Positions 11,766 to 61,442 of a DNA stretch of 64,000 nt are shown piece after piece (position 1 is the first letter of the stretch; each line of letters starts with the position of its first letter). Location: NCBI GenBank assembly GCA_037142835.1, contig JBAWZW010000001.1:4592-68591 (forward strand). The letters are read 5' to 3'. Under the pieces are notes generated by a model. That model did no database searches, was not told the DNA's origin, and saw only the letters and a program-made list of their open reading frames with translations. The translations under genes and the position numbers were made by a program. Source of the DNA: Verrucomicrobiota bacterium (GTDB taxonomy: Bacteria > Verrucomicrobiota > Verrucomicrobiia > Chthoniobacterales > Chthoniobacteraceae).

Positions 11766-13346
11766 ATGTCCAACGGTCCAACCAACAAAGAAGTCTACCA
11801 TCGTCTGCGTGCCCTACCTTGGGAGAAACTCTGGACTGAGGAGGTCCAAAGATTCACCCAAGCATCTCCACGCGAACGCTTTGAAAACGTGTCGGTTATT
11901 CGTGCCGTAGGCGTAGTCTTTCCCCAGTCTGGCCCCACAGAATTACGGGCGGATGTCCAACTCTGGCTCCGCGAACTCCTCCTAGATCCCGAGGAAAAAA
12001 TTCGCCGCTATGCCATCGCCGCTCTACCCAAGGTCGGAGCGACGGGAACAGACGAAGCAGAATTACTCAAACTTCTCCGCACGACAAAAAATCCTCGCGA
12101 AGAAAAATTTCTCGGCCAAGCCCTCGATAAAATTGGAGGTTCCGCCACCCTAGAAACCCTTGCCGCATCGGGAAAAGGCTCGCCCCAAACCATCCAAAAA
12201 ATTCAAGCCAGCCTCGCCCGAAGAGAAACTCCCAGCACGGTTCGTCTCGATCATCTCCTTCCCGAATCCGAAGCCCAGCGCATCCACCTCCGATGCCGAG
12301 CAGGCCTCGAAGGAATCCTCCGCGCTGAATTAGAAGAACAAGGTAAATTCCGCATCCTCGGTGGAGCGCGGGGACTGGTCGCGATTACCCCCCTCGTGCC
12401 GATCACCCTCGCAGATATTTTCGCTCTTCGATGCTTTGGCACTCTCGGAATCGTCCTGGGCCTCGTCCGAACTCAGCAGGATACCCAGTCCATTGAGTCT
12501 CTCGCCCAGATCATCTCCTCGCCCGCCACCACACGACTTCTCCTCGCTTTAACCGAGGGTTCCCTCCGCTACCGCCTCGATTTTATCGGAAAGGGACACC
12601 AACGGAGCGCCGTCCGCTTAGTCGCCAATCGGGCCTATGCCCTCAGCCAAGCAATTCTCAACGACCCACAAGAAGCCCCTTGGGCGATTGATGTTCACCA
12701 AAATAAATCAGGCGATTCCGTGGAATTGCGCCCGCGCACTTCTCCAGATCCGCGTCACCCCTATCGGCTTGGTGATGTTCCCGCAGCCTCCCACCCTCCA
12801 CTCGCGGCAGCGATGGCTCGCCTCGCTGGGGCGCAAGCACAGGAAAGGATTTGGGACCCGTTTTGTGGCTCAGGATTAGAACTAATCGAACGATCACTGC
12901 AAGGTGGGGTTGAATCGGTCTTTGGAACCGATCGCAACGCCCAGGCTATTGCCATCGCCGAACGCAACTTTGCCGCCGCCACCCTTCCCCAAATCAACGC
13001 CCACTTCATCTGCTCAGACTTTCGTGATTGGGAGAAAATCGCCGGGCTTACCCATCAAAGCATCTCCCTCATCGTGACCAATCCCCCCCTTGGCCGCCGC
13101 GTGCGAGTTCCTCATCTTCGCAGCCTCTTTCATGACCTCTTTTGCGTGGCCGCAGATGTCCTTCGCCCAGGTGGTCGAATGGTCTTAACCAATCCATTTC
13201 AAATGGATAGTCCCACAGATCTACTCCGCCTCCAGTCACGCCAAGTCGTCGACCTCGGTGGTTTTGATTGTCAACTTGAAGTCTACGAAAAAGCTTACCC
13301 TCAAACACCCGATAGCCAGAAACAATCAAACGCTCACCCTCGCTAG
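11766..13346 (+). CDS. HEAT-repeat + THUMP-like + class I SAM RNA methyltransferase
   Basis: DPEEKIRRYAIAAL HEAT-like unit, LRCRAGLEGIL THUMP-like start, WDPFCGSG (motif I) and TNPPLG (motif IV). Confidence 0.75.
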   Translation: MSNGPTNKEVYHRLRALPWEKLWTEEVQRFTQASPRERFENVSVIRAVGVVFPQSGPTELRADVQLWLRELLLDPEEKIRRYAIAALPKVGATGTDEAELLKLLRTTKNPREEKFLGQALDKIGGSATLETLAASGKGSPQTIQKIQASLARRETPSTVRLDHLLPESEAQRIHLRCRAGLEGILRAELEEQGKFRILGGARGLVAITPLVPITLADIFALRCFGTLGIVLGLVRTQQDTQSIESLAQIISSPATTRLLLALTEGSLRYRLDFIGKGHQRSAVRLVANRAYALSQAILNDPQEAPWAIDVHQNKSGDSVELRPRTSPDPRHPYRLGDVPAASHPPLAAAMARLAGAQAQERIWDPFCGSGLELIERSLQGGVESVFGTDRNAQAIAIAERNFAAATLPQINAHFICSDFRDWEKIAGLTHQSISLIVTNPPLGRRVRVPHLRSLFHDLFCVAADVLRPGGRMVLTNPFQMDSPTDLLRLQSRQVVDLGGFDCQLEVYEKAYPQTPDSQKQSNAHPR

Positions 13347-16300
13347 CCACCGAAGGGTTTCGTAGAAAAAGCCTGTCCAACAATCGCCAAAAGTTTTGTG
13401 GGCGTGTACGGCTTCGGCAGATAGTTTGTGCCCTCACGAAGATCCAGACCTCGCCCAGACACCTCCCCAGGATAGCCACTCATAAAGATCACCCGAAGAG
13501 TAGGTTTGGTGGCGAGAAGCTGATCCGCTAACTGCCCACCAGAAACGCTTTCTGGCATCACGACGTCGGTCAAAAGCAAATCCACATTTGCCGCGTGTTC
13601 GGGCCAAAGGATCAGAGCTTCAGCCCCACTCCCCGCCTCGATCACTTGATAACCAAACATCCTCAGCGCCTGGGCAGTGAGCTTCCGCAACGCCAACTCA
13701 TCTTCCACGAGCAAGATGGTCTCCCCAAAACCCGAGCGCTTGTCATTAGCCGCCACTGATGCCGGAGCCACCGAAGCGTCTAATTTTTGGGGAAAATAAG
13801 CATGAAAGGTCGTGCCGACTCCTAGTTGGGTTTCAACCTCAATCCATCCGTGATGTTGCTCAACCACTCCGTAGACCGTTGCCAAGCCTAATCCCGTGCC
13901 TTTACCGATATCTTTCGTCGTAAAAAAAGGCTCAAAAATTCGCTTCACATGCTCTGGCGCGATTCCGCTTCCGTTATCTTGAACGCTCAATCGAATAAAA
14001 TCTCCCATACGGCTAGGGCTTTGCACCGCTTCCGTCTCCAAAATTTTCACCGCCTTTAATGTGAGGGTAATCTCTCCCCCATTCGTCATCGCGTCGCGCG
14101 CATTGACCGCCAAATTGAGAAGCACTTGTTCCACCATTCCTCGATCCGCTTGGATCAGCATACTCTCAGGCAACAACCGCGTCTGAATCGTGACCGCTTC
14201 CGGAATCAGTCGGCGAAGCATTTTCACCATTCCGACCACCACTTCATTCAGATCGATAGACTGAAACCGCAGAGGTTGTTGTCGGCTAAAAGTCAGTAAT
14301 TGCCGGGTCAAATTGCTCGCACGTTCACTCGCCTTGGCAATCTCCTCAAGGAGATGCTGTTGCTGGGGACTGACTTGCCCAAGCTGGAGTAACTCGGTAT
14401 TCCCAAGAATCACCGTGAGCATATTATTAAAATCATGCGCTACCCCGCCCGCTAATTGCCCAAACGCCTCCATCTTTTGCGATTGCCGGAACTTTTCCTC
14501 CAGTTGATGGCGTTCGGTAATGTCTTCCGCCGTTCCAACGACTCGCACCACCTCTCCACTGCTATTCCGAACGGGAAACGCTCGGTCGTGGATCCAACGG
14601 ATTCCCCCGTCTGGGCGGATGATCCGGTAGACAATGTCGTAGTTTCCTTCAGCCTGAGATACCGACGATTGCTTGACCGCTTCCAGGTCCTCGGGATGAA
14701 TCGCCTCCAACCAAGATTGCGGCGAAGCATAGAGACTGGCACAGGTTCGCCCCCAGATTATTTCAAAAGCAGGACTGACATATACCATCTGCTCCTTCGC
14801 CGAATCCGTCACCCAAAAGACTTCCCGAATGTTTTCTGCCAGTTCCCGGAAACGCTCCTCGCTCTCTCTTAAGACTTTCTCCGCAGCCTTGGACTCGGTG
14901 ATATCCCGCATGAATGCGCTAAAGAAAATTTCCCCTCCCGTCTGAACCGGAGTGATGGCCAACTCCACGGGAAACTCCTCCCCACTTTTTCGTAAAGCCG
15001 ATAACTCGAGGCGCTTATTCAAAACCGGTCCGATCCCCGTTGATAAGTAACGTTTCATCCCCTCCGCGTGCCCTCGCCGATACTGCTCTGGAATGATCAA
15101 GTCGGCGAGAGACCGCCCACAGGCCTCACTTTTTTTCCACCCAAAGATGGTCTCCGCTTGCAAATTCCAATTCGTAATCTGACCTCTAATATCCATCCCG
15201 ATCACCGCGTCCAAAGCAGTATCCACGACCGCTTGGTACCGCACGTCGCTCTCGCGCAAAGCACGCTCAGTCATCTTCCGATCGGTAATATCTCGGGTCA
15301 CTCCCACATAGAAAATAATCTGACCGTTTTCATCGTGGAGCAGCGACACACTCAGGTCATTCCAAAAACTTTGCCCGTTCTTTCGATAGTTCAGAATCTC
15401 TCCTGCAAATGGAACCCTAGTTCGAAAAGAATTCCGGAGCGCTTCAATCGTTTCTTGATCGGTCAACGGCCCCTGAAGGAACGCACAGTTGCGCCCCAAA
15501 ACTTCCGCCTCGTCGTAGCCGGTCATCGTGCAAAATGCCGGATTCACCGAGACGATCAGACGATCCGCATTGCAAACTAATACCCCTTGCGAAATCGATC
15601 GCAAAGCCAAGTCGTTCAAGCGCATCGCGGATTCATTTTTCCGCCGTTCGGTAAGATCCGTATTCGTCCCCACCACTCGCACCGCTCGCTTTTGATGATC
15701 CCGAACAATCCAACCCCGTGAGAAAATCGGCACATAGTGACCAGCCCGATGGCGGAGCCGATGCTCAAATTCGTAGCAATTAAGATCGCTAGCTAAAAAC
15801 CCCTTCATTAAGCGACTCACCCGCTCGCGATCATCGGGATGGGTCAGTTCTGACCAAAGATCGGCGGTAACTGTCAGTTGGCCAGGTGCATAGCCGAGCA
15901 TCGAAAACCAGAAGTCCGAATAAAAAACCTCATTTTTAATCAAATCACGATCCCAGACCCCATCCTGAGATGCTTGGATCACCAAATTCAAACGATCCTC
16001 AGACTTTTTTAAACTCATCTCCGCCAGATGCTTGAACTGAGCCATCTCAATGACCGTCTGAAGCTCGCGACCACTAAATGGCTTGAGAACATAGCCATAG
16101 GGCGTGGCTAGCTTGGCACGCGCCAAGGTGTCGGCCTCAGCAAAAGCCGTCAGAAAAACCACCGGCAAACCAAAGCGATTGCGGATTTCCGTAGCGGCCT
16201 CAATCCCATCCATGGATCCCGCTAATTGAATATCCATCAAAATCATGTCGGGTTGCAGTTCTTCCGCGAGAGCGATGGCTTGATCTCCCCGAGTGGCGTG

Positions 16301-16408
16301 ACCCACAGGTAAATATCCGAGCTCAATCAACTGCTGTTGAATATCTCGAGCGACAATCACTTCATCCTCAACGACGAGAATTTTCGGCTTGGAAAGCGAA
16401 GATGGCAT
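13343..16408 (-). CDS. Hybrid sensor kinase REC-PAS-PAS(LOV-like)-PAS(heme-like)-PAS-HisKA-HATPase-REC
   Basis: KILVVEDE...MDIQL (REC1), four PAS/PAC units, [10 protein letters not shown] (H-box), [24 protein letters not shown] and LLTDVVMP (REC2). Confidence 0.93.
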
Positions 16409-16480
16409 AGTCAGCAATTTAAAAAGCTGCGGGAGATTGGCAAGACGCTAAGCGATCGGCAGAAAAAGAAGTTGCCACGC

Positions 16481-19045
16481 TCAATTCTCAATCGGCAAGA
16501 GGGACGTCTCCACTGAAAAAGTCAGGCTAAAAGCAGCTCCCGGACCGGGCTCGATGACCGCCGTCCCACCGAGCTGAAGGGCGAGATCGGAGACCAGTTG
16601 ATGTCCCAATGAATGCCCGCGCTTTTCATCAAAGTCGGCGGGCAGCCCGATCCCGTTGTCCCTAACTCCAATCTGGAACTCTTGGGGATTCTTCCCTTTC
16701 TGCAGGGTGATCCGAACCTCACCTGGCCGATCATTGGGAAAGCCGTGCTTCAGGCAATTCGAGAGCAACTCGTTCATAAATAGCCCGCAGGAAATCGCCT
16801 GATCCATCGGGGCATCAACCGCACACACCTCAAGATGCAATGTCACTCTGCTGGACGAATCCACCAGGCTCCGAAAGGACTCGGTCGCAAGTTTTTTTAA
16901 ATAGTCACCCAAATCCACTTTGGCAAAAGTTCCAGAGCGATATAGCAATTCATGCAAAAGAGACATCGAACGAATCCTTCCCTGCATATCCTGCAAGGCA
17001 ACTTTGGTCTCCAAATTGACACAGCGTCCCGTTTCAAGCCGAAGCAAACTGTAGATGATCTGCAGGTTATTTTTTACCCGATGATGCACCTCTTTGAGAA
17101 GGGCGACCTTGTCCCGTACCGAAGCTTGAAGCTCAAGCTCAGCACGAAGACGACCAGCGAGTTCCTCAGTGAGCTGCTTGTTCGTCCCCGTCAAACTTTG
17201 TCGCGATTGATACAGTCCTTCCCTCGCTCCAGCGAGCCCCTCAGCCGCCCGACCAACCTCCGCTTGCAACCGGTTGAAATTGATCGCCATATCCCCAACT
17301 TCGTCCCTCGAATAAACCTTCACTGGCACGGTATCAAACTCTGCGTGCGCACCATCAAGATCACCCGCCGCCAAGGCCTGCATCGCTTTGGTAAAATCTT
17401 TCAAAGTGCCCGCAACCAGAAGATTCGCCGCCTTCGAAACCTCAACCGCGGAGTGAGCAATCATCCCCGGAAGAATTAACCCCACCGCAATCGTCAAAAG
17501 CGCAACAACCACAAAAATGTCCTGAAGGAGAGAAATCAACGCGCTGTTTTCGGTAGGAACATTGCCCACCGCGATCAGATAACCGCCAGCGTCGAGCACC
17601 AGAACCAAAAGCATCGCCCCCGTGAGCTTCAGGTGGAGGGTTCGGGCGATTCCCGGCAACCCCGCTTTCCTCCGATCCATAAACTTCCGCCAAGCGTAAA
17701 GCGCTGCCCCAGAGTACGCAAAAGAGATGCCAATCAGCACCGTCGTTAAACCAAACTGCTCGAAGCCGAGGATGGCCGTCAAACCCCACGCACCCGCCGC
17801 AAGCAGTCCCAGCCAGATCGTCCCCCGCGGCGCACGATAAGGGCGCGCAAGGGTGGGTTCGTTGCGGCGCAGGAGCCAGACCGCCACGCTCGGAAGGGCG
17901 ATCCCGATTAGGTAGGTCAGATTGGCTGCGGCGATCAGCCAGATGGGATTGCCAATCCACAAAAAGACGATTGCCATCACCCCAGTGGAGACGGTGGCGA
18001 CCCACGGGGCATCCGTCTTCGACCGCTTCGCCAGCGACTCGGGAAGTAACCCATCCTCAGCAAGCTGCGCAAGGGTTCTCGCCGCTCCAGCCAAGGGCGC
18101 CAAACAACCGTGGAGCATGTTAAAGATCATGAACCACGCCGCCGCCGCCTTCGCCGAAGCCCCAAAAAGCGGAGCGAAAGTGGGCCCAAGGACGTCGGCA
18201 AGATCTTTGCCAAGTTCCTCAGGTCCAAGTGCACCCAGCCAAATAATCGGCAGAATGATAAAATAGAGCGAAGCCAGACCAGCACTCGCAAAAACCGCGC
18301 GCGGAACATTCCGGTTGGGATCGATGGTTTCACCAACATGCGAAGTGGCCTGCTCAAAGGCGGGTGCCGCGAAGCCAATCAAATAGAGCCCAGCCATCAC
18401 GCTGGTGACTTGGCCAAACCAACCAGGAAAGGGCACGGTCAAATGAAAGCTAAAGGCCTGATGCCAATCCACCAAACCATTGGTCATCGGAAGAATCGCC
18501 GAGCAAAAAGCCAGCGCAGCCGCCGCCGTCGCCACGGGCATCGCAAGGCGCATCACCCATTTGACCCCGCATAAATTAACCGCCGCAAAAAGAATCACGA
18601 TCCCCGAAGCCAACACCTTCGGTGCGTAATCAGGCATGACTGGCAGGCACCAGTTAATCAACGCCGTCGAGGCCAGAGTCGCAGTCAACCCACACGTTGG
18701 CACCCATCCCCACCAATAACAAACCCCCGTCAGGTTCGCCAAAACTGGACTGTAAGGACGAAAAGCCTCCGCACATGTCGCGGCAATTCCCCCAACCCGG
18801 TTGGGATACATCAAAATCAGTTCCGTCCATCCTGGCGTCGCCGCCCAACTCAAAAGCAACCCAATCGCCAAGAGGACCACCGCAGCACTCCCTTGTCCCG
18901 GAATCGCCCCTTGCCCGATAAAAAGTGCCCCGATCAGAAAGAGACTTTGATTGATTCCCCCCATCGCCACCGCCGTGGTTCCAAACCACCCAATTGTTCG
19001 AGGATGAAGCAACGATGGGGCGGTGGAGGCGGAAGATGATTGCAT
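16481..19045 (-). CDS. APC-family amino-acid permease fused to HAMP + HisKA_2 + HATPase_c kinase
   Basis: About 450 aa of polytopic APC-like sequence (AFEQATSHVGETIDPNRNVPRA, RTLAQLAEDGLLP, RPYRAP), two more TMs, HAMP (DEVGDMAINFNRL), EVHHRVKNNLQII, NELLSNCLKHG, DNGIGLP and SLG. One uninterrupted ORF. Confidence 0.9.
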   Translation of the reverse strand: MQSSSASTAPSLLHPRTIGWFGTTAVAMGGINQSLFLIGALFIGQGAIPGQGSAAVVLLAIGLLLSWAATPGWTELILMYPNRVGGIAATCAEAFRPYSPVLANLTGVCYWWGWVPTCGLTATLASTALINWCLPVMPDYAPKVLASGIVILFAAVNLCGVKWVMRLAMPVATAAAALAFCSAILPMTNGLVDWHQAFSFHLTVPFPGWFGQVTSVMAGLYLIGFAAPAFEQATSHVGETIDPNRNVPRAVFASAGLASLYFIILPIIWLGALGPEELGKDLADVLGPTFAPLFGASAKAAAAWFMIFNMLHGCLAPLAGAARTLAQLAEDGLLPESLAKRSKTDAPWVATVSTGVMAIVFLWIGNPIWLIAAANLTYLIGIALPSVAVWLLRRNEPTLARPYRAPRGTIWLGLLAAGAWGLTAILGFEQFGLTTVLIGISFAYSGAALYAWRKFMDRRKAGLPGIARTLHLKLTGAMLLVLVLDAGGYLIAVGNVPTENSALISLLQDIFVVVALLTIAVGLILPGMIAHSAVEVSKAANLLVAGTLKDFTKAMQALAAGDLDGAHAEFDTVPVKVYSRDEVGDMAINFNRLQAEVGRAAEGLAGAREGLYQSRQSLTGTNKQLTEELAGRLRAELELQASVRDKVALLKEVHHRVKNNLQIIYSLLRLETGRCVNLETKVALQDMQGRIRSMSLLHELLYRSGTFAKVDLGDYLKKLATESFRSLVDSSSRVTLHLEVCAVDAPMDQAISCGLFMNELLSNCLKHGFPNDRPGEVRITLQKGKNPQEFQIGVRDNGIGLPADFDEKRGHSLGHQLVSDLALQLGGTAVIEPGPGAAFSLTFSVETSLLPIEN

Positions 19046-19243: not shown

Positions 19244-19369
19244 CTTTCATCAAGAGTGACCGAGGGACTGGCCCAGTGAAGTCACGGCAACCGCCTAATG
19301 CGTAAGCGTTAGGGACCAGGTGCCAAATCCAGCCGCAAACGCGCAAGCGCCCGCGGAAAAGATGAGAAG
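19244..19369 (+). promoter_or_regulatory. SAM-I (S-box) riboswitch aptamer
   Basis: ctttcATCAAGAGtgaccGAGGGACTGGCCCagtGAAgtcacGGCAACC...GGTGCCAAATCC...GAAAAGATGAgaag matches the SAM-I consensus, with P1 tttcatc/gatgaga. Confidence 0.93.
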
Positions 19370-19397: not shown

Positions 19398-19448
19398 GTC
19401 CTCGTCGCCATGCAATCGCTCAGATTCTTGATGAAAACATCACGACTT

Positions 19449-20708
19449 ATGGACAAAACATCGCCCTTCTTCATCAATCTCAAATGCCGCGAATGCGGCC
19501 GAACTTATCCAAAGCAAGCCATTCATGTCTGCGACTTCGACTTCGGCCCCCTCGAAGCCGCCTACGACTACGATGCCATTCGATCCGTACTCACTCGCGC
19601 AGTCATCGAAAGTCGCCCACAAACCATGTGGCGCTATCGCGAACTTCTCCCCATCGATGGCGAACCCACCGTCGGCACCCAAGTCGGCTTCACCCCCTTG
19701 GTCAAAGCAGATCGTTTAGCCAAAGCCCTCGGCATTCGCGAACTCTATGTCAAAAATGACACCGTAAACTACCCCACCCTTTCCTTTAAAGATCGGGTCG
19801 TTTCCGTCGCCCTCAGCCGAGCTTGCGAACTCGGATTCAAAGTAGTCGCCTGCGCCTCCACCGGAAACCTCGCCAACTCCGTCGCCGCCAACGCCGCCAG
19901 CGCAGGCTTAAAAAGCTATGTCCTCATCCCCGCCGATCTCGAACAAGGCAAAGTCCTCGGCTCGCTCGTCTACGGAACCAACGTCATCTCCATTCACGGT
20001 GCCTACGACCAAGTCAACCGCCTCTGCTCAGAAATCGCGGGAAAATATGGCTGGGGCTTCGTCAATATCAATCTCCGCCCTTATTATGCCGAAGGCTCAA
20101 AATCCATGGGCTACGAAATCTGTGAGCAACTCGGCTGGCGCATCCCCACCCACACCGTCGCCCCAATGGCCTCTGGCTCTTTACTCACCAAAATCCACAA
20201 AGCCTATGGCGAATTCGCGCGCCTCGGCTTAGTCGAAAATACCCCTTTCTCCGTCTATGGTGCCCAAGCAACCGGTTGCGCTCCCATCGCCCACGCCATG
20301 AAGCTCGGAACCGATATCGTCAAACCTGTGCCCAAACCCGAAACCATCGTAAAATCCCTCGCCATCGGCACGCCCGCCGACGGCTATTATGCGATCCACG
20401 CCATGCGCCAGACCTCAGGCACCGCAGAAGATTGCACCGACGAAGAGGTCGTCGAGGGCATCCGCCTGCTCGCCGAATGCGAAGGCATTTTCTCAGAAAC
20501 TGCCGGCGGTGTCACCGTCTCCTGCGCGAAAAAATTGATCGAAACTGGAAAAATTCCCCGCGATGGCAGCGCCGTTCTCTGCATCACAGGCCACGGACTA
20601 AAAACCCAAGAAGCGATTATCGGAAAGTGTGGAACGCCTCGCATCATCAAGCCCAGCCTCCGAGAATTTGAGGAGCAAGTTTATCATAAAGACTCCGTCC
20701 TCGCTTGA
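19449..20708 (+). CDS. Threonine-synthase-like PLP enzyme, probably MetM-type O-phosphohomoserine sulfhydrylase
   Basis: N-terminal CxxC (CRECG), PTLSFKDR PLP-lysine motif, ASTGN, EGSK and ETAGG. SAM riboswitch upstream and sulfur carrier downstream. Alternative start at 19431. Confidence 0.85.
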   Translation: MDKTSPFFINLKCRECGRTYPKQAIHVCDFDFGPLEAAYDYDAIRSVLTRAVIESRPQTMWRYRELLPIDGEPTVGTQVGFTPLVKADRLAKALGIRELYVKNDTVNYPTLSFKDRVVSVALSRACELGFKVVACASTGNLANSVAANAASAGLKSYVLIPADLEQGKVLGSLVYGTNVISIHGAYDQVNRLCSEIAGKYGWGFVNINLRPYYAEGSKSMGYEICEQLGWRIPTHTVAPMASGSLLTKIHKAYGEFARLGLVENTPFSVYGAQATGCAPIAHAMKLGTDIVKPVPKPETIVKSLAIGTPADGYYAIHAMRQTSGTAEDCTDEEVVEGIRLLAECEGIFSETAGGVTVSCAKKLIETGKIPRDGSAVLCITGHGLKTQEAIIGKCGTPRIIKPSLREFEEQVYHKDSVLA

Positions 20709-20761
20709 CCCTTTCCTCACACCCGAGTCAAATCCCTGCCCCTTCACTCTCCATCATCCCA

Positions 20762-21034
20762 ATGCCTACCGTCCTCATTCCTACTCCACTCCGCAGGCTA
20801 ACCAATGACCTCGAAGAGGTCAGCGCCGCGGGAGCCGATATCGGCACCTTAATCGATAACCTCGATAAAGCCTTCCCCGGATTAAAAGATCGCGTCTGCG
20901 ATGAATCGGGAAATGTTCGCCGCTTCGTTAATATCTACGTCAACGGGGAAGACATTCGCTTTTTGCAAGAGAAAGCCACCCCCGTCAACGAAAACGACGA
21001 AATCAGCATCGTTCCCGCCATCGCCGGAGGCTAA
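20762..21034 (+). CDS. ThiS/MoaD-family ubiquitin-like sulfur carrier
   Basis: VLIPTPLRRLT, RRFVNIYVNGEDIRF and C-terminal IVPAIAGG. Confidence 0.93.
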   Translation: MPTVLIPTPLRRLTNDLEEVSAAGADIGTLIDNLDKAFPGLKDRVCDESGNVRRFVNIYVNGEDIRFLQEKATPVNENDEISIVPAIAGG

Positions 21035-21093
21035 TCTGCCCATCTTCGCCCAACCCATCCCAGCCAAGTTTACTATTTCATCCTCAGCATTTT

Positions 21094-21339
21094 ATGAACG
21101 AAAAACAACGCCTCTGGCTGATGTTCCCAACTAAACTCGTCACCCGACCAGTCCTTTGGGAACTAGGTCAAAAATTTCCCGTGATCACCAACATTCGCCA
21201 AACCAGCGTGACCGATGAAATTGGCATCGTCTCCCTCTCCCTTGAAGGCGAACGAGAAGAAATCAAACGATCCATTGCTTGGCTGGAAGAACTCGGAATC
21301 AAGGTGGAACCAGTAGAAATGAACACCATCGAAGGCTAG
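21094..21339 (+). CDS. Stand-alone NIL-domain protein
   Basis: LWLMFPTKLVTRPVLWELGQKFPVITNIRQ...GIVSLSLEG...WLEELGIKVE follows the NIL/ACT-like pattern. Confidence 0.8.
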   Translation: MNEKQRLWLMFPTKLVTRPVLWELGQKFPVITNIRQTSVTDEIGIVSLSLEGEREEIKRSIAWLEELGIKVEPVEMNTIEG

Positions 21340-39294: not shown

Positions 39295-39299
39295 CTTGG

Positions 39300-39718
39300 T
39301 GGCTGGCGATAAGCCGAATTCTGTCTCGGTTCGGTCACCCAAACCGCGTGATGATCATTTCTCTCAGTCTGCCGAAGCAGACCGCCGCGCTCCTCTCGAA
39401 ACGCTGGTGCGACTAATACCCAGAAGGTGCCACGCTTTCGCGTGGCGGGCAGGCGACCCACACTTCCTGTTTTGTCTTGCACCGCATGGGGTTTTTCGTG
39501 CCCCGACGCTTGCGCATCGGGCGGTGGGCTCTTACCCCGCCTTTTCACCCTAACCTCCGACTTTCACCAGAGGCGGTTTATTTTCTGTGACACTTTCCGT
39601 TGCACACGGCTTGGGCCGTGTACCCCCGCGCATTCTACGCGGCATGCTGCCTTGTGGTGTTCGGACTTTCCTCAAGGAAAAAGCTTACGCATTCCCCCAG
39701 CGATCATCTGCCAGCCAG
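39300..39718 (-). ncRNA. rnpB: RNase P RNA (type A)
   Basis: The - strand carries GAGGAAAGTCCGAACACC, AGTGTCACAGAAA, GGTGAAAAGGCGGGGTAAGAGCCCACC, GGTGCAAGAC and GACAGAATTCGGCTTAT. The termini CTGGCTGGC/GCCAGCCA pair. Confidence 0.96.
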
Positions 39719-61368: not shown

Positions 61369-61442
61369 GCACTCGTAGCTCAATTGGATAGAGCATCGGT
61401 CTTCGAAACCGAGGGTTGTGGGTTCAAGCCCCGCCGAGTGCA
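61369..61442 (+). tRNA. tRNA-Arg(TCG)
   Basis: GCACTCG TAGCTCAATTGGATAGAGC A TCGGT CTTCGAA ACCGA GGGTT GTGGG TTCAAGC CCCGC CGAGTGC A. Confidence 0.95.

Follow-up and report, generated by a model that had tools for sequence, protein, structure and literature searches.

An APC permease-fold module joined to HAMP and a HisKA_2 histidine kinase is a probable transporter-fold receptor

The DNA that we have analysed, hereafter the window, is a 64,000-nucleotide stretch of a Verrucomicrobiota genome (Chthoniobacteraceae; GenBank assembly GCA_037142835.1, contig JBAWZW010000001.1, positions 4,592 to 68,591 of the forward strand). On its minus strand lies a gene of 854 codons in which a permease from the APC superfamily (amino acid-polyamine-organocation) is joined, on one chain, to a HAMP domain and a HisKA_2 histidine kinase. 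An earlier reading of the DNA letters (the original prediction) had picked out this gene and proposed that the conformation of the transporter is the input of the kinase. Our analysis reveals that the 854-aa protein is one member of a large modular family and not the curiosity of a single genome, and we think it likely that it is a transporter-fold receptor kinase, that is, a ligand-gated APC sensor feeding a kinase-to-kinase relay. The gene and its parts are listed here in window coordinates, with the evidence for each in brackets.

16481..19045, minus strand: whole gene, APC-fold sensor/HAMP/HisKA_2 histidine kinase of 854 aa (open reading frame, Pfam, identical protein on an independent contig)
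17666..19006, minus strand: APC core with 12 transmembrane (TM) helices, SLC7/AdiC-like and of LeuT fold, aa 14-460 (Pfam, AlphaFold2, Foldseek, profile match to xCT in the PDB)
18938..18964, minus strand: motif of the unwound segment of TM1, M28-G-G-I-N-Q-S-L-F36 (invariance in 40 close homologs, break in the AlphaFold2 model, alignment to AdiC)
18352..18372, minus strand: TM6 signature F225-A-A-P-A-F-E231, with the gate aromatic and an invariant Glu (hmmalign to Escherichia coli AdiC)
17465..17665, minus strand: invariant basic cytoplasmic linker (DRRKAGLPG) and TM13-TM14 hairpin, aa 461-527 (AlphaFold2, 45% invariant positions)
17210..17464, minus strand: helical extension of TM14, HAMP (amphipathic helix AS1, connector, amphipathic helix AS2) and the GAREGL end of the module, aa 528-612 (Pfam, AlphaFold2, conservation)
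17096..17209, minus strand: variable signalling helix/coiled coil from HAMP to the dimerisation and histidine phosphotransfer (DHp) domain, aa 613-650 (first AlphaFold2 model, conservation)
16865..17095, minus strand: HisKA_2 dimerisation/phosphoacceptor domain, aa 651-727, with the H-box H654-H655-R-V-K-N (Pfam, motif search)
16484..16864, minus strand: HATPase_c catalytic domain, aa 728-854, with the N-box NELLSN and the G1 box DNGIG (Pfam, motif search)

The open reading frame starts with ATG and is uninterrupted by stops, and the GC content runs continuous along it. All the Pfam matches of its product exceed the curated gathering cut-offs: AA_permease_2 (PF13520) at aa 18-416 (E 3e-31, 109 bits against a cut-off of 27), HAMP (PF00672) at aa 548-596 (28.2 bits, cut-off 25), HisKA_2 (PF07568) at aa 652-726 (E 4e-25, 88 bits) and HATPase_c (PF02518) at aa 757-845 (38 bits). 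A second permease family, PF00324, is also scored (52.6 bits, cut-off 24.6). The output is a complete HisKA_2 kinase, with an H-box in the DHp domain (HHRVKN, aa 654-659) and the N and G boxes in HATPase_c; its core partially matches the PhyK and LOV-HK models of NCBIfam, and N758, D796 and G814 are invariant among the kinase outputs in an alignment of 40 close homologs. An identical 854-aa protein with the same neighbours is encoded on an independent metagenome contig of 18 kb in ENA (L011). In addition, an 854-aa homolog at 93% identity, named as a protein of an Akkermansiaceae metagenome-assembled genome (MAG), represents 79 sequences.

For structural information, we modelled aa 1-640 with AlphaFold2 on a 69-sequence alignment that includes branches down to 30% identity, which gave a mean predicted local distance difference test score (pLDDT) of 91 and a predicted template modelling score (pTM) of 0.87. 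The model displays a TM1 broken at residue 32 (helices 20-31 and 33-42), after which eleven more TM helices reach residue 460. This is the 12-TM LeuT fold which, together with a sequence score above cut-off, characterises the APC superfamily. TM6 is modelled as one continuous helix (209-239), without unwinding. A short cytoplasmic linker joins the 12-TM core to TM13 (470-494), and an outer loop of six residues (495-500) leads to TM14, a helix that extends unbroken from 501 to 559 into AS1. HAMP thus comes directly after the last TM helix, as in HAMP-linked receptors, with its connector at 560-581 and AS2 starting at 582 and continuing as a long helix. An earlier AlphaFold2 run on 40 close homologs (pLDDT 68.9, with TM1, TM6-7 and residues 635-643 below 50) was used solely for the helix that continues from AS2 into DHp; in that model, one helix spans residues 582-674. 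The architecture agrees with the original prediction in its single frame without internal stop, in the order permease, HAMP, coiled coil and kinase, and in a hairpin of two TM helices whose loop leaves no room for a sensor domain. The TM1 motif that it had singled out as atypical, AMGGINQSLF, is indeed so, and invariant among close relatives.

The structural relatives of the membrane core are amino-acid carriers. Foldseek retrieves y+LAT1, LAT1, SLC7A10, AdiC, BasC, GkApcT and ApcT, with template modelling scores of 0.75-0.81 (target-normalised) and 18-22% identity to these SLC7/APC carriers; NKCC1 is also among the matches. The top matches are outward-facing or substrate-bound states, the inward-open LAT1 entries scoring lower (0.67-0.69). 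A permease-only family profile, built from trimmed sequences (full-length distant members drew mainly kinase matches), finds xCT (E 2.8e-22), y+LAT1/2, LAT1/2, GkApcT, LysP and AdiC in the PDB.

When E. coli AdiC (K-12 record) is placed on the family profile by hmmalign, its TM3 gate Y93 corresponds to Y110, its TM6 gate W202 to F225, I205 to P228 and E208 to E231, a residue that stays invariant down to branches at 31-45% identity. After TM6, G238-E-T-I-D-P-N-R-N-V-P248 aligns with the NPKRNVP motif of AdiC. Typical APC motifs are retained, namely the post-TM6 E-x-x-D-P-x-R-N-V-P, P-x-x-x-G-G in intracellular loop 1 and D-G-L-L-P after TM8. Ten of the 11 positions mapped to the substrate and gate sites of AdiC are invariant in close relatives, over a background of 43% (binomial probability ~0.0015, for positions not chosen blind).

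TM1 is where the protein departs from these carriers. In AdiC and LAT-type carriers, a Gly-Ser-Gly in the unwound segment binds the alpha-carboxylate of the substrate via backbone amides. Here, the G-[ST]-G motif is absent. A local alignment pairs V28-F-L-L-P of AdiC with L35-F-L-I-G, and its ungapped backward extension puts N32-Q33-S34 opposite G25-S26-G27, coinciding with the break in the modelled TM1. In the wider clade, the only residue of the TM1 motif conserved at ≥90% is G30, one turn before N32. Since the Gly-Ser-Gly is replaced, canonical amino-acid binding is not to be assumed, and the ligand may be something other than a standard alpha-amino acid. Consequently, the description of this domain as a complete APC transporter holds for its fold and its gates but not for the substrate-binding segment of TM1.

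The family to which the protein belongs is broad. Matches to it come from more than 2,400 clusters at 90% identity, with the same junction in all the matches listed, and a scan of one genome per species found 369 encoding loci. Freshwater Verrucomicrobiota make up most of their hosts, the rest including Planctomycetota and Burkholderiales. Two of the genome records carry no MAG label, those of Undibacterium arcticum KCTC 42986 (L084, with a GGDEF-EAL output) and Verrucomicrobia bacterium IMCC26134 (L055, with a HisKA-REC output). Where NCBI names the members, they are called "amino acid permease" and once "hybrid sensor histidine kinase/response regulator," by which part of their function is missed. 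The JGI name is [quoted passage not shown]

When 1.84 billion cluster representatives were scanned exhaustively with aa 1-530 by HMMER, 1,412 matched at E ≤ 1e-3, of which 229 at E ≤ 1e-30. We examined the best 150 representatives (79 others lie between E 1e-48 and 1e-30), and among these 150 of 1,412 there is no evident stand-alone transporter, although stand-alone relatives may exist further out. Those that span the entire module measure 785-1539 aa, down to 33% identity, with the sole exception of P0122 (574 aa), while short matches span parts of the module only. P0122 was considered as a stand-alone form and rejected because its chain stops within HAMP, for which reason it is most likely truncated. 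Of nine distant full-module proteins (33-47% identity) scanned with Pfam, eight carry HAMP and/or HATPase, HisKA, GGDEF, EAL or HD-GYP domains, and the ninth has no Pfam hit. Two further sequences appear broken: P0126 (785 aa), with an Arg/Gly-rich C terminus past HAMP as though frameshifted, and L052, in which a separate open reading frame with PAS comes 101 nt after a module open reading frame of 694 aa.

Conservation is distributed very unevenly along the chain. Among the 40 homologs, which have different outputs, invariant positions make up 43% of the 12-TM core (aa 14-470), 45% of the hairpin (471-530) and 27% of the HAMP region (531-612), and then 3% of the coiled coil, 0% of DHp and 2% of the catalytic domain. 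The boundary falls at about residue 615, just past the conserved G-A-R-E-G-L; in the coiled coil that follows, the majority frequency drops to 0.51. The conserved unit, residues 14-615, thus comprises permease, hairpin and HAMP. In the 69-sequence alignment with its distant branches, hairpin and HAMP positions such as K473, G488, Y489, D509, P526, D581, E582, F590 and N591 remain conserved at ≥90%. This module is found, at 60-94% identity, in more than 100 proteins with five types of output: HisKA_2-HATPase, HisKA-HATPase with or without a receiver (REC) and with or without HPt, PAS-histidine kinase, PAS-GGDEF-EAL and PAS-GGDEF-HD-GYP. In the best 80 of the 369 loci, we counted 13 HisKA_2, about 50 HisKA-type and 14 GGDEF-EAL outputs.

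A maximum-likelihood tree of 75 module sequences requires at least nine changes of output type, the lowest possible number being two, and its well-supported branches force at least five changes of the HisKA_2 label. The same tree shows the phyla intermixed. These output changes and intermixed phyla suggest that the module is a portable input cassette, repeatedly recombined with outputs and moved between lineages, and APC, hairpin and HAMP together most likely constitute a plug-in sensor module shared by many signalling enzymes. Since a single block of conservation takes in permease, hairpin and HAMP while the output is repeatedly exchanged, the comparison of sequences argues for the APC domain as the probable signal input. 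The original proposal that transporter conformation is this input thus gains strong comparative support, from block conservation, output exchange and the lack of stand-alone forms in the best 150 representatives, short of proof.

Some placements on the tree cross phylum labels. Verrucomicrobia strain IMCC26134 (L055) has a Gammaproteobacteria MAG (L064) as its sister, and three MAGs nest within Verrucomicrobia or Proteobacteria under the labels Actinomycetota (L033), Gloeobacterales (L062) and Klebsiella (L091); the mixture could be due to horizontal transfer or to mis-binned contigs. In a Methylotenera MAG (L014, 1-7211), a HisKA-type member adjoins integrase, AlpA-like and primase-like genes and an SMC-like ATPase, as if it lay on or beside a mobile element.

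Downstream of the kinase gene in the window lies a second signalling gene.

13343..16417, minus strand: conserved partner, a REC - PAS x3 (one LOV-like) - HisKA - HATPase - REC hybrid kinase (Pfam; 63-72 nt downstream, same strand)

The gap between the two genes contains no terminator-like site, in a promoter/terminator scan whose counts were overall at chance level and do not bear on operon structure. The pairing is a fixed trait of the HisKA_2 branch: at 13 of 13 HisKA_2-type loci, a receiver-first gene is found immediately downstream, overlapping or at most 64 nt away, and its receiver is closely related to that of the window (E 1e-28 to 1e-51). The complete partner genes encode a receiver followed by (PAS)-HisKA-HATPase, mostly with a terminal REC. 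Among the best 80 loci, most members with other outputs have no partner recognised by the probe domains, and in a few cases a REC-only gene or a HisKA-type kinase comes next; the HisKA-type member of Methylotenera is followed by REC and REC-HD-GYP genes. Because the pairing with a receiver-first hybrid kinase is fixed, its N-terminal REC is the candidate target of phosphotransfer, and the HisKA_2 kinase most likely phosphorylates it in a kinase-to-kinase relay.

The second PAS domain of the window's partner carries a LOV-like motif, GRNCAFLQG (partner aa 308-316; window 15470-15496, minus strand), in which the Arg of NCRFLQ and the distal Gln (GVT for GVQ) are replaced, making flavin photochemistry uncertain. 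Such a motif is present in just 2 of 14 partners, those of the window and of its nearest relative L017 (GRNCDFLQ). It was therefore rejected as a part of the system and regarded as a lineage-specific addition.

From these features, we infer how the protein might work, from ligand binding, through the direction and mechanics of coupling, to the phosphotransfer target. A small periplasmic solute would bind centrally, between TM6 and the broken TM1, and its occupancy would shift the APC core between outward-facing and occluded/inward-facing states. This shift would pass from TM12, via the invariant basic linker (W-R-K-x-x-D-R-R-K-x-G-L-P), to the TM13-14 hairpin, and the helix that TM14 forms without a break with AS1 would then carry the signal into the HAMP bundle of a dimer. 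The coiled coil would convey the state of HAMP to the HisKA_2 DHp, thereby setting autophosphorylation on H654 or H655, and the adjacent hybrid kinase, REC-PAS-HisKA-CA-REC (CA, catalytic domain), would most likely take over the phosphoryl group on its N-terminal receiver, in a relay that may integrate further PAS inputs. LATs and AdiC are exchangers, which change conformation mainly when loaded. An APC fold may thus be a good converter of occupancy into conformation.

Several points weigh against this mechanism. The AlphaFold2 model is that of a monomer, and both the dimer interface and the docking of the hairpin are outside its scope. The correspondence between TM1 and AdiC rests on the ungapped extension of a local alignment and on the modelled break. 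No DNA-binding regulator is adjacent to the kinase gene. The closest curated match of the permease, the trimethylamine N-oxide permease TmoP (NF053774), is scored at 110-113 bits, far below its equivalog cut-off of 690 bits. In CbrA, of such fusions the best studied, the activities measured in vitro were not significantly affected by L-histidine (PMC7096432), and a fusion therefore does not guarantee coupling. Moreover, Ks-Amt5 kept all transporter motifs yet does not translocate and binds ammonium only (PMC11152129, PMC5764959), and as a consequence a receptor and a working transporter cannot be separated by sequence.

As for the ligand, TmoP ranks first among the curated NCBIfam models for each of the 19 members of the clade that were tested, with a best E of 3e-40, and the window protein scores about twice as many bits with it as with generic amino-acid, ethanolamine or LAT models. 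This similarity favours, though weakly, a solute of the small-amine or amine-oxide type over a standard alpha-amino acid. The CYWWGW of TM3 was considered as ligand evidence, in the sense of an "aromatic box for quaternary amines," and rejected, since AdiC has the same Y-W...W pattern (LYWLACW), which is thus a general APC feature. Genomic context gave no clue to the ligand among the lineages compared. The neighbours differ in every lineage (the window has queuosine genes and genes controlled by an S-adenosylmethionine [SAM] riboswitch, an Opitutae MAG has an ABC transporter and an amidase, a Burkholderiales MAG has TctABC genes and Methylotenera has phage-like genes), and flanking metabolic genes are not conserved.

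The APC domain may bind its solute only, or transport it as well, and we place the binding-only receptor slightly ahead of the transporting transceptor. In the latter, the APC domain would work as a transporter or exchanger and the kinase would report turnover or the inward-facing state, with uptake and signalling coupled as proposed for yeast Gap1. We regard this as a real but minority possibility. It is favoured by the completeness of the fold, by the retention of Y110, F225, E231 and the motif after TM6, by nearest structural relatives that are obligate exchangers and by the histidine transport of the SLC5 domain of CbrA (PMC7096432). The best 150 representatives, however, include no evident stand-alone transporter, Asn-Gln-Ser stands in place of the Gly-Ser-Gly of TM1, no catabolic genes are conserved next to the family, many members drive cyclic di-GMP enzymes rather than uptake regulons, and intact motifs without transport are on record in Ks-Amt5 (PMC5764959).

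The binding-only receptor can be taken further, to a tentative extension that we would hold with no more conviction than the transceptor. The 14-TM APC, hairpin and HAMP unit might be an ancient, horizontally mobile and dedicated receptor cassette without transporting members, in which Asn-Gln-Ser in TM1 would signify a ligand chemistry unlike that of amino-acid carriers, possibly that of a small methylated amine or amine oxide as for TmoP. Because the carriers nearest to it in structure are obligate exchangers, which switch only when loaded, occupancy would be read directly as conformation, and it would be passed to a fixed kinase relay in the HisKA_2 branch and to cyclic di-GMP in other branches. 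If so, the cassette would be a general route by which freshwater and soil bacteria couple an external solute to lifestyle decisions.

The lack of a ligand clue in the genomic context would also fit a module that has no specific organic ligand and whose LeuT-fold equilibrium responds to a physical or energetic state, be it membrane potential, proton-motive force, pH, ionic strength or lipid packing. Carriers of the CCC family in the APC superfamily bind ions at the site that corresponds to TM1. NKCC1 is among the Foldseek matches, polar Asn, Gln and Ser replace Gly in the unwound segment, and the acidic E231, D485 and D509 are within or near the membrane. We nevertheless consider this reading improbable, because conservation is very strong at positions mapped to the organic-substrate site of AdiC and LAT, and because the best matches are carriers of amino acids and amines, not of ions.

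Less probable still is a fusion that is uncoupled or reversed, with the permease serving as an anchor or dimerisation scaffold, or the cytoplasmic domains regulating transport. It has a parallel in CbrA, whose two halves operate independently in vitro, with no significant effect of L-histidine (PMC7096432). A mere anchor, on the other hand, would not hold 43% invariant positions across phyla with varying outputs, and a module that drives kinases and GGDEF-EAL proteins alike speaks for a single input serving many outputs rather than for one transporter under many regulators. The usual role of HAMP is, furthermore, to relay signals from membrane to output. Finally, two separate genes joined by an assembly or gene-calling artefact, which the original prediction had named as what would overturn it, are practically impossible: the identical protein on the ENA contig with its same neighbours and the more than 2,400 homologs with the same junction exclude a chimeric assembly, and the homolog standing for 79 sequences, the 369 loci in species-representative genomes and the unbroken conservation over the junction speak against it as well.

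The rest of the window contributes a few observations of its own. A SAM riboswitch (RF00162, 73 bits) is located at 19244-19368 on the plus strand, 5' of the genes at 19410-21339 (plus strand), in which ThiS-like and NIL-domain genes come after a thrC-like PALP gene, an arrangement that resembles a methionine/homocysteine operon of the sulfur-carrier type under SAM control. Since the GTG start called mechanically at 19320 falls within the aptamer, the true start probably lies close to 19410, and ENA calls a protein of 432 aa. Although next to the kinase gene, the riboswitch is part of this divergent operon on the other strand and has no relation to the kinase. A row of queuosine precursor genes identified with Pfam (queF-like, QueC, radical-SAM QueE-like and PTPS/QueD) occupies 21471 to about 24000 on the plus strand. 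A bacterial class A RNase P RNA (203 bits) is found at 39296-39717 on the minus strand, and a tRNA gene at 61369-61442 on the plus strand.

The significance of the family lies in the apparent conversion of a LeuT-fold APC permease into a portable receptor module at large scale, with five kinds of output in several phyla. It offers a natural system for how the movements of alternating access might become HAMP signalling, with the natural GGDEF-EAL variants as an easy read-out in vivo and the fixed receiver-first pairing of the HisKA_2 branch as a clean case of a putative kinase-to-kinase relay. Our full-text literature search found no description of an APC-HAMP sensor family. Sensors fused to transporters are still presented as rare: a 2026 preprint calls CbrA "a rare transceptor" (PMC13022988), and a link between an ECF S-component and 5TMR was presented in 2024 as the first prokaryotic transceptor case (PMC11109136). 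TCDB includes a family in which a major facilitator superfamily (MFS) transporter is fused to a sensor kinase, without an APC equivalent in PMC3924187.

Among known systems, CbrA, CrbS, MxtR and RpuS are alike in having a LeuT-fold transporter and a histidine kinase on one chain, for which they are called transceptors (PMC7096432, PMC13022988, PMC9100948). They differ as follows: their transporter is a 13-TM sodium/solute symporter (SSS), as opposed to an APC/SLC7-like 12-TM core plus a 2-TM hairpin; their coupler and kinase are STAC plus PAS and HisKA, as opposed to HAMP and HisKA_2 in the 854-aa protein; and their partner is an NtrC-type regulator, as opposed to a receiver-first hybrid kinase. 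No SSF or STAC family is among the Pfam hits of the 854-aa protein at E ≤ 0.1, which places it outside the SLC5-STAC group. The SLC5-STAC proteins CbrA and CrbS had been given as the precedents for transporter-kinase fusions; these do exist, but the list lacked the Amt-fold receptors Ks-Amt5 (PMC5764959) and Sd-Amt1 (PMC11152129). The latter two, Amt-HK and Amt-HAMP-GGDEF respectively, are the best functional analogue, with a transporter fold as receptor, a HAMP relay, and kinase or diguanylate cyclase outputs. Their trimeric 11-TM Amt channel is, however, unrelated to the LeuT-fold APC core, and their HAMP or kinase comes directly after the last core helix, whereas the present family adds a conserved TM13-14 hairpin.

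The APC amino-acid permease fold itself is used for sensing by Ssy1 of the SPS sensor and by Gap1 in yeast. Ssy1 is regarded as a non-transporting sensor. Both are eukaryotic and signal via separate proteins (Ptr3/Ssy5 or PKA), unlike the covalent fusion to HAMP and kinase described here. In bacteria, LysP, the co-sensor of CadC, is an APC permease. References on Gap1 are among those listed in PMC11109136, which also cites the pairs BceAB-BceS, DctA-DcuS and LysP-CadC, in which a transporter's state is read by a regulator or kinase whose membrane part is a minimal one of 2 TM helices and a short loop. The TM13-14 hairpin with HAMP resembles such an intramembrane-sensing kinase (BceS) fused to its own transporter; those pairs are non-covalent complexes, in contrast to one chain co-evolving as one block. 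TmoP of Methylocella silvestris is a stand-alone transporter, without hairpin, HAMP or kinase. HisKA_2 kinases such as PhyK and LOV-HK resemble the kinase core of the 854-aa protein, whose H-box reads HHRVKNN, but their inputs are of other kinds, mostly cytoplasmic or periplasmic, and are not known to include a permease. The principle of a transporter fold acting as a receptor is thus already known from Amt and SLC5 fusions, and the family to which the 854-aa protein belongs is a further variant of it.

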